A stretch of 64,000 nt of DNA from Ruminococcus sp. UBA3665 (GTDB lineage: Bacteria > Bacillota > Clostridia > Oscillospirales > Ruminococcaceae), in the NCBI GenBank assembly GCA_002373165.1, contig DFJS01000067.1:1380-65379 (forward strand). Reading direction: 5' to 3'. Both the position numbers and the translations under genes were made by a program. The notes below the pieces were generated by a model that worked only from the letters and a program-made list of their open reading frames with translations, made no database searches and was not told where the DNA came from. Positions 63,566 through 63,795 of the stretch are shown piece after piece; the first letter of the stretch is position 1; each line of letters opens with the position of its first letter.

Positions 63566-63603
63566 TAATAATTAAAAAATTTTTCTGAAAGGAGTTGTTT
63601 CTC

Positions 63604-63702
63604 ATGTTCTATACTGTTATTCTGAATGCATGTTGTTGCTGTTGTTCTGAAAATAACTGGATATTTACAAGGCAGAGAAACAGCTCTCACGTTTCAGGAT
63701 AA
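63604..63702 (+). CDS. candidate leader peptide with five consecutive Cys codons
   Basis: A GAAAGGAG RBS lies 8 nt upstream of the ATG. The product is MFYTVILNACCCCCSENNWIFTRQRNSSHVSG, with TGT TGT TGC TGT TGT at 63631-63645. Confidence 0.55.
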   Translation: MFYTVILNACCCCCSENNWIFTRQRNSSHVSG

Positions 63703-63735
63703 TTATTTTTATGGATATCATTCTGAATTTTGGCG

Positions 63736-63768
63736 GAGTGCGCAGTTTTCTGCGTGCTCTGTTTTTTT
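63736..63768 (+). terminator. intrinsic terminator (attenuator) upstream of the Cys/Met PLP gene
   Basis: GAGTGCGCAG-TTTT-CTGCGTGCTC (10 bp, 2 G-U pairs) followed by TGTTTTTTT. It ends 27 nt before the next start codon. Confidence 0.75.
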
Positions 63769-63795
63769 GTGCAGTTTTGAAAGGAGTTTTTTATC

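Follow-up and report, generated by a model that had tools for sequence, protein, structure and literature searches.

A putative cysteine-keyed leader-peptide attenuator between cysK and an mccB-like gene in Ruminococcus sp. UBA3665

We analyzed a 64,000-nt stretch of the genome of Ruminococcus sp. UBA3665 (assembly GCA_002373165.1, contig DFJS01000067.1, positions 1,380 to 65,379 of the forward strand; hereafter the window), in which a short open reading frame (ORF) with five consecutive Cys codons, followed by an intrinsic terminator, lies between cysK and an mccB-like gene. Our results indicate that this element is most probably a cysteine-keyed transcription attenuator of the leader-peptide, ribosome-mediated kind, which gates the read-through from cysK into an mccB-mccA-like module. 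A first-pass annotation of the window had proposed the same Cys-keyed attenuation architecture, which is supported here by the anatomy of the leader, by its conservation in homologues and by its recurrence at orthologous operons.

The Cys-codon leader and its terminator

The leader follows cysK on the plus strand of the window and comprises the following features.

63587-63594, plus strand: Shine-Dalgarno (SD) sequence of the leader ORF, GAAAGGAG, 21 nt past the cysK stop and 9 nt before the ATG
63604-63702, plus strand: leader ORF of 32 codons and a stop, MFYTVILNACCCCCSENNWIFTRQRNSSHVSG, with an ATG start and its stop codon at 63700-63702
63608-63649, plus strand: region 1, the 5' strand of the 1:2 helix (anti-antiterminator) with the Cys codons inside, from the minimum free energy (MFE) structure of RNAfold
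63631-63645, plus strand: five consecutive Cys codons (codons 10-14), TGT TGT TGC TGT TGT, the proposed stall site
63673-63715, plus strand: region 2, the partner of region 1 or, via 63683-63700, of region 3, holding the leader stop codon (RNAfold)
63683-63741, plus strand: candidate antiterminator (2:3), 63683-63700 with 63717-63741, -14.6 kcal/mol by constrained folding
63732-63768, plus strand: intrinsic terminator (3:4) from a terminator scan, with a 14-bp stem (63732-63745/63750-63763), the loop UUUU and a U-tract to 63768

The leader ORF begins 38 nt past cysK and is predicted to be translated from a ribosome-binding site of its own, upstream of the regulated genes. The SD core AAAGGAG is invariant across five aligned homologues, in four of which the first base of the SD is G, and the SD context TGAAAGGAGTT...ATCATG is common to the leader ORF, cysK and the MccB-like gene. 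Codons 10-14 are tandem codons for the final product of the pathway, that is, five Cys codons ahead of genes for the conversion of Met to Cys. This is the sole run of at least four Cys codons on the plus strand of the 64-kb window, and runs of at least five are expected only 0.002 times per strand from base composition; the other Cys-codon runs in the window are 11 of exactly three and one of four on the minus strand. Clusters of Cys runs at 35.1-35.4 kb and 3.2-3.3 kb were considered as extra leaders and rejected, since the long repetitive surface-protein genes that contain them are read in other frames.

In the public assembly, the gene caller placed a 32-aa ORF at 63711-63809, overlapping the terminator and the mccB start, and left the Cys leader ORF uncalled. 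The same call lies at 11076-11174 of L001, a 74-kb metagenome contig which carries the exact cysK protein and reaches past the window, and from which the full downstream genes were taken. As the caller skipped the Cys leader ORF, the record has no annotation of the real leader and contains a spurious ORF.

Folding of the full leader with RNAfold gave -49.3 kcal/mol (z = -3.4 against dinucleotide shuffles; the z-scores of the leader folds ranged from -3.4 to -3.7), and the ribosome-free MFE structure consists of a long helix, 63608-63649/63673-63715, together with the terminator. The long 1:2 helix, which contains the regulatory codons and would sequester region 2 in the absence of stalling, has -26.1 kcal/mol by itself. 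In its core (63638-63649/63673-63684) the Cys run pairs with CAGAGAAACAGC; the core is 87% paired across the five homologues, and two changes in one of them (L086) stay compatible with pairing. The intrinsic terminator, which separates the leader ORF from the structural gene, has seven G-C pairs in its stem, seven U after it and -21.4 kcal/mol when folded alone. It is 91% paired in the five homologues, with two pairs altered on both sides.

These data bear out much of the first-pass annotation, including the 32-codon ORF at 63604-63702 with Cys at codons 10-14, the 11/12 pairing of the Cys run, which RNAfold reproduced as the core of a longer helix, the lack of a terminator after cysK (the scan found none between the cysK stop at 63565 and the leader) and a downstream transsulfuration-type pyridoxal phosphate enzyme gene, which starts at ATG 63796 and is MccB-like by NCBIfam. 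The strong ribosome-binding site and the canonical terminator that it described are both present, but the former lies one base further left, at 63587-63594, and the scan places the terminator stem at 63732-63763 instead of 63736-63768.

Conservation and recurrence at orthologous operons

We collected 160 loci by MccB-like protein scans in species-representative genomes and metagenomes. An nhmmer search with an alignment of the window type detected direct homologues of the leader at L004, L084, L086, L006 and L005, with E-values from 7e-53 to 3e-10. Their leader peptides read MFSIISLTVCCCCCSENNCIVMKQRNSSRISG (L004), MFMTMILTVCCCCSVYNCISIKQRNSSHISGK (L084), MKKMCCCCCSDKNCILFSQKDSFIP (L086), MKAVYTMINCMCCICCRSENFIRCKQIHALNIL (L006) and MAIKYVYGACCCRRNNRINVFCHGNSTCVF (L005). 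The SD, the ATG, the frame, the Cys run, the core of the 1:2 helix and the terminator are retained in all five, and the start, frame and stop position of the window's leader ORF are the same in L004 and L084. Moreover, a 3-nt deletion in L084 removes exactly one Cys codon and keeps the frame. The search of relatives thus found what the first-pass annotation had expected of a genuine leader, a conserved short ORF and Cys run, together with compensatory changes in the terminator.

The gene order around the homologues varies. L004 and L084 share the order cysK-leader-mccB with the window, and in L086 and L005 the leader follows cysK and precedes a TIGR00027 S-adenosylmethionine (SAM)-methyltransferase gene, which is followed by mccB-mccA. 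In L005, L006, L017, L023-L028 and L030, luxS (judged by an HTxEH...CG motif in the translation of the upstream sequence), the TIGR00027 SAM-methyltransferase gene or both stand between the leader and mccB. Judging by their predicted gene content, such operons would constitute a full SAM-recycling-to-cysteine operon, and the lineage of the window appears to have lost the luxS and methyltransferase genes, which would have placed the leader beside mccB.

Further, we carried out a census of both strands of the 160 loci, counting intergenic short ORFs of at most 70 aa with a Cys cluster, a terminator-like hairpin at most 160 nt away and an ORF of at least 100 aa within 260 nt. Such an arrangement was found at 42 of the 160 loci on the sense strand and at one on the antisense strand, and Cys runs of 3-6 occur in the homologous and analogous leaders of at least 42 loci. 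Five leaders missed by the ORF-based census (L005, L007, L015, L085 and L093) were recovered by nhmmer; among them, L015 is the isolate R. flavefaciens ND2009, which carries at 2903-3080 a leader of a sister family. In the R. flavefaciens-type leaders (e.g. MRTMYMMCCCMCNNSYPRIPLTYAQRCCAFF), the sequence 3' of the Cys run copies the 3' arm of the terminator and pairs with its 5' arm. Leaders of the type MKCMCCCM... are found in other Clostridia bins. We regard the comparative sequence evidence as decisive for the predicted Cys-run leader.

Could the hairpin instead be the constitutive terminator of cysK, with a Cys-run ORF that arose by chance or slippage in a long 3' untranslated region (UTR) and an mccB-mccA pair served by its own promoter? 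The element does lie directly after cysK with no other terminator between them, the leader ORF was passed over by the gene caller, and three-unit TGT/TGC repeats exist elsewhere in the window in non-Cys frames. We nevertheless consider this explanation very unlikely, given that an in-frame run of five Cys codons behind a strong SD and an ATG is hardly expected by chance (the 0.002 per strand given above) and that relatives conserve the ORF together with its frame and Cys run, down to a codon indel that stays in frame. The short ORF and terminator also precede orthologous operons with no upstream cysK, for example at L006 and in the whole R. flavefaciens group, the sense to antisense ratio is 42:1, and no promoter-like site was found by scanning the 27 nt that separate the terminator from mccB.

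A second alternative, that the short ORF encodes a functional Cys-rich micropeptide (metal- or redox-active, or the precursor of a RiPP, a peptide made by ribosomes and modified after translation) and is not a sensor, is extremely unlikely in our judgement. The ORF has a good SD, and Cys-rich short peptides such as SCIFF-type precursors are generally known from Clostridia, but outside the Cys run the peptide is poorly conserved even in close homologues, and the peptides of different families are unrelated to one another (MFYTVILNACCCCC..., MKKMCCCCCSDK..., MRTMYMMCCCMC..., MKCMCCCM... and MNQKMMNMCCCCWS). No maturase or radical-SAM gene is adjacent, and in every case a terminator and sulfur-amino-acid genes come after the ORF.

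Several observations were made at related loci during this comparison. Very short Cys-run leaders, MNQKMMNMCCCCWS and MNFPFNSLNFACCCRCRTGI, were found in Fibrobacter bins and contigs (L043 1979-2023, L044 3820-3876, L065 3810-3872, L100 and L101), followed by an MccB that is 71-73% identical to that of the window, which suggests either a cross-phylum transfer of operon and leader in the rumen or convergence; the contigs may also be mis-binned. In addition, the R. flavefaciens-type leaders of L008, L009, L010, L012 (e.g. at 2915-3010), L022, L015 and others contain another Cys pair close to the stop codon, within a conserved ...YAQRCC... stretch. This stretch forms an inner hairpin in the loop of the antiterminator, and the upper stem of the hairpin holds the stop codon. 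Its possible roles are those of a second checkpoint or of a hairpin for pausing. Two Ruminococcus bins (L020 ~3760-3960 and L021 ~3790-3960) have no leader; before mccB they carry a promoter and a perfect palindrome that is present twice (TGACAACGTTGTCA / TGATAACGTTATCA). These palindromes and the promoter, standing in place of the leader, suggest a third solution, a DNA-binding regulator.

Transcription unit, antiterminator and proposed mechanism

The transcription unit in which the leader is embedded is delimited in the window by four further features.

62527-62555, plus strand: sigma-70 type promoter, 12/12 against TTGACA-17-TATAAT, with a TG extension
62636-63565, plus strand: cysK (O-acetylserine sulfhydrylase), NCBIfam TIGR01139, 469 bits against a cutoff of 351
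63779-63786, plus strand: SD of the MccB-like gene, from reading of the sequence
63796-64000, plus strand: start of the MccB-like gene (ATG 63796), which continues past the window edge

We take the promoter, which is kept upstream of cysK in L004 and L086, to drive cysK and, through read-through, the leader. An internal promoter between cysK and the leader was rejected for the window, where the plus-strand scan from the cysK stop to the leader detected no promoter-like site; L004 has a TATAAT there, without a convincing -35 in a reading of its sequence. Downstream, the full gene on L001 encodes an MccB-like protein of 386 aa, an enzyme of the Cys_Met_Meta_PP family whose best NCBIfam model is PRK07671 (bifunctional cystathionine gamma-lyase/homocysteine desulfhydrase, MccB type; score 572.8 bits, cutoff 594). 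Only 2 nt separate it from the gene of an MccA-like PALP enzyme (CysK/M subfamily, 303 aa), which scores 337 bits against the cutoff of 344 of the cysKM subfamily model. As judged from the predicted proteins, the two form the gene pair for the conversion of Met to Cys (reverse transsulfuration).

The 5' UTR of cysK (62556-62635), directly after the promoter, contains interleaved inverted repeats, ATACTAATCAGATAGGATATTAGTGCTATCTAAGT, which are near-identical in L004 and partly retained in L086. By appearance they look like a repressor operator, possibly of the CymR type. Such an operator would provide a first level of control for cysK, upstream of the gate formed by the leader.

The antiterminator was modelled with a stalled ribosome, represented by masking 33 nt around a ribosome with its A site on a Cys codon, on an RNA that ends before the 3' arm of the terminator. 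The candidate antiterminator is the MFE structure of this nascent RNA. In it, GCUCUCACGU (63683-63692) pairs with GCGGAGUGC (63733-63741), stacked on the pairing of UUCAGGAU (63693-63700) with AUCAUUCUGAA (63717-63727), and nine of the 14 bases of the terminator 5' arm are occupied. With the ribosome on the stop codon 63700-63702, the segment 63683-63700 is covered and the terminator 5' arm is unpaired. The homologues behave similarly: in the stall model the 3' end of the leader pairs with the terminator 5' arm in L084, L004 and L086 and partly in L006, and in the model of the ribosome on the stop codon this pairing is gone in L084, L004 and L086 as in the window. For L005, which was not folded, a similar pairing was read from the sequence. 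A 2:4 antiterminator, CAGAGAAACAG with the terminator 3' arm, had also been considered, given the likeness of region 1 to region 4 and of region 2 to region 3, and was rejected; it amounts to only 5+3 bp with an internal loop in the window and was never chosen by RNAfold.

The antiterminator pairing register seems to shift between homologues. Since the register differs, a register-free duplex test was used in place of column-wise covariation, in which the best duplex formed by the spacer with the terminator 5' arm was set against 300 shuffles for 47 distinct leaders. The mean z was -1.02, and 11 leaders reached p ≤ 0.05 where 2.4 were expected, a complementarity that is significant for the collection and not for the window alone. 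In the sister family (12 sequences), the terminator is 97% paired with four pairs altered on both sides, and the antiterminator 2:3 is 85% paired, also with four pairs altered on both sides, against 27-57% in slid controls. An antiterminator exclusive with the terminator is therefore clearly present in the R. flavefaciens-type family and, collectively, over the 47 leaders. For the window, constrained folding supplied a candidate for the mutually exclusive fold that the first-pass annotation had sought by eye and missed, but its exact pairs lack statistical support and are the weakest part of the case.

We infer the following sequence of events. Transcription would start at the cysK promoter and proceed through cysK into the leader. 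When Cys-tRNA is plentiful, the ribosome would reach the stop codon at 63700-63702 and cover 63683-63715, the terminator (63732-63763) would fold, and the transcript would end before mccB. If the leader is left untranslated, region 1 (63608-63649) would pair with region 2 (63673-63715) and the terminator would likewise form. When charged tRNA-Cys is scarce, the ribosome would stall on 63631-63645, holding region 1 and freeing region 2, whose segment 63683-63700 would pair with 63717-63741 and take nine bases of the terminator 5' arm ahead of the synthesis of the 3' arm. Read-through by RNA polymerase would follow, and MccB and MccA would be made. In physiological terms, the order would be CysK first and methionine conversion next.

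Several points weigh against this reading. The nascent-RNA fold of the window has a z of only -1.0 and the antiterminator duplex one of -0.85 (p = 0.19), and the exact antiterminator pairs of the window are 65% paired in the five homologues, no better than shuffles or slid controls. At equilibrium, the full-length fold retains the terminator in the MFE structure even with the Cys codons masked, so that a read-through switch would have to be kinetic; in the E. coli trp attenuator the terminator likewise wins at equilibrium and the switch is kinetic. Moreover, the cysK-leader-mccB arrangement is present in only three distinct sequences (the window, L004 and L084), most of the relatives are metagenome bins, and the MccB and MccA assignments score slightly under the NCBIfam curated cutoffs.

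Part of these doubts could be accommodated if the Cys-run ORF senses cysteine through stalling while its output is non-classical, acting on mccB translation, through Rho or mRNA-stability effects, or through a ribosome delay that stops the 1:2 helix from reforming. Such an output would fit the missing statistical support for the window's antiterminator, the dominance of the terminator at equilibrium in every modelled state and the precedent of a mycobacterial Cys short ORF, experimentally proven to act on translation by freeing an SD. We consider it unlikely, as a strong canonical intrinsic terminator is kept in nearly all examples, the terminator 5' arm of the sister family covaries with both of its alternative partners, and the SD of mccB (63779-63786) lies beyond the terminator and is unsequestered in the modelled leader folds. 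Transcription attenuation at the intrinsic terminator remains our preferred reading.

Comparison with known cysteine sensors and attenuators

Rfam 15 was scanned with the whole window at gathering thresholds, with 62400-64000 at E ≤ 10 and with 32 related loci. No family, including T-box and SAM riboswitches, covered the leader of the window at gathering thresholds or at E ≤ 10, in agreement with the expectation of the first-pass annotation that known leaders would be excluded. The leaders of 16 related loci gave the same result. The chance matches, FasX (26.5 bits against a gathering threshold of 100) and L20_leader (20.6 against 58.7), were far under threshold and were discarded. The T-box model (RF00230) matched neither the window (at gathering thresholds, and at E ≤ 10 in 62400-64000) nor 16 related loci. 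By contrast, the model did detect a T-box directly upstream of the orthologous MccB-like gene of Clostridium tepidum (L081 3610-3859; RF00230, 110 bits), and our reading of the consensus alignment gives GAA-UGC-A at its specifier position, which corresponds to Cys.

The ubiG-mccB-mccA operon of C. acetobutylicum is under the control of a Cys-specific T-box (Andre et al. 2008, PMC2566862), and the SAM-methyltransferase-mccB-mccA operon behind the leader in relatives of the window has the same layout as ubiG-mccBA. As the orthologous genes are under a Cys T-box in Clostridium and L081, the leader peptide occupies the place of the Cys T-box. The two devices would act on the same genes, respond to the same signal, tRNA-Cys charging, and work by antitermination at an intrinsic terminator. 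They differ in that the T-box is a structured RNA of ~220 nt that reads uncharged tRNA directly, whereas here a ribosome would read the supply of charged tRNA on a 32-codon ORF; nor did the window and its relatives give a match to the T-box covariance model. With the same genes and the same signal, the use of a Cys T-box in Clostridium and of a Cys leader peptide in Ruminococcus and Porcipelethomonas relatives would represent a clean natural sensor swap.

Taking these points together, we are slightly inclined to the wider view that a large unannotated family, or several convergent families, of Cys-sensing leader attenuators replaced the Cys T-box in Oscillospiraceae of the rumen and gut, at their methyltransferase-mccB-mccA operon. 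Other Clostridia bins and Fibrobacter, where this operon has such leaders too, would be included, and some members would have two separate Cys checkpoints within a single leader. In the window, where the leader stands behind cysK, de novo synthesis and then methionine salvage would be engaged in sequence. Genome annotation could gain about 47 or more regulatory mini-ORFs that are so far unannotated, and they mark the Met-to-Cys genes of key rumen fibre degraders as predicted to be induced by cysteine starvation. The cultured carrier R. flavefaciens ND2009 makes this prediction testable.

The first-pass annotation had called the element possibly undescribed. For Clostridia this holds in Rfam and in the searchable literature: within searchable full text, to which subscription-only papers do not belong, no Cys leader-peptide attenuator is described in Firmicutes or Fibrobacter, and the Cys form is apparently undescribed in gut and rumen Clostridia. 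It does not hold for bacteria at large, since Cys leader ORFs are known in Actinobacteria and predicted in Rhodobacterales. Leader-peptide attenuators are reported to be rare in Firmicutes (PMC2965389); the element would thus be an instance of a textbook mechanism in a phylum where T-boxes and riboswitches serve, and Cys versions are proven only in mycobacteria, where they are translational.

In Actinobacteria, Cys-run leader ORFs were predicted and terminators were not found (Seliverstov et al. 2005, PMC1262725), and polycysteine leaderless short ORFs of mycobacteria are proven translational attenuators (Canestrari et al. 2020, bioRxiv 10.1101/834739). The mycobacterial short ORFs resemble the present leader in having consecutive Cys codons upstream of cysteine-metabolism genes and a paused ribosome as the Cys sensor. 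They are leaderless, however, and the best-dissected one unmasks the SD of the next gene, whereas the ORF described here is SD-led and is followed by a canonical intrinsic terminator; the window showed neither a leaderless start, there being no promoter between cysK and the ORF, nor SD unmasking. In Rhodobacterales, uORFC-8-2 upstream of cysS is a predicted ribosome-mediated attenuator (Brewer et al. 2021, PMC8632094), which likewise has Cys codons in the first stem and a terminator stem and U-run after them. It differs from the present leader in having only two Cys codons, in its alpha-proteobacterial host, in regulating a tRNA synthetase gene and in its unrelated sequence.

The closest likeness in architecture is to the classical attenuators (E. 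coli trp, his, leu, thr and pheA; Trp_leader, His_leader and others in Rfam). These share with the present leader a short ORF that is SD-led and has codons for the end product in tandem, the alternative helices 1:2, 2:3 (a candidate in the window) and 3:4, a stop codon placed such that a terminating ribosome would cover region 2, and a terminator that is thermodynamically stronger than the (candidate) antiterminator. In contrast to them, the leader described here is specific for cysteine, belongs to a host of the Clostridia (Oscillospiraceae), lies inside a transcription unit after cysK and not at its 5' end, and resembles none of the Rfam leader families in sequence. The element is thus a member of a family that is new and sizeable but whose kind of regulator is well known, and not a new kind.

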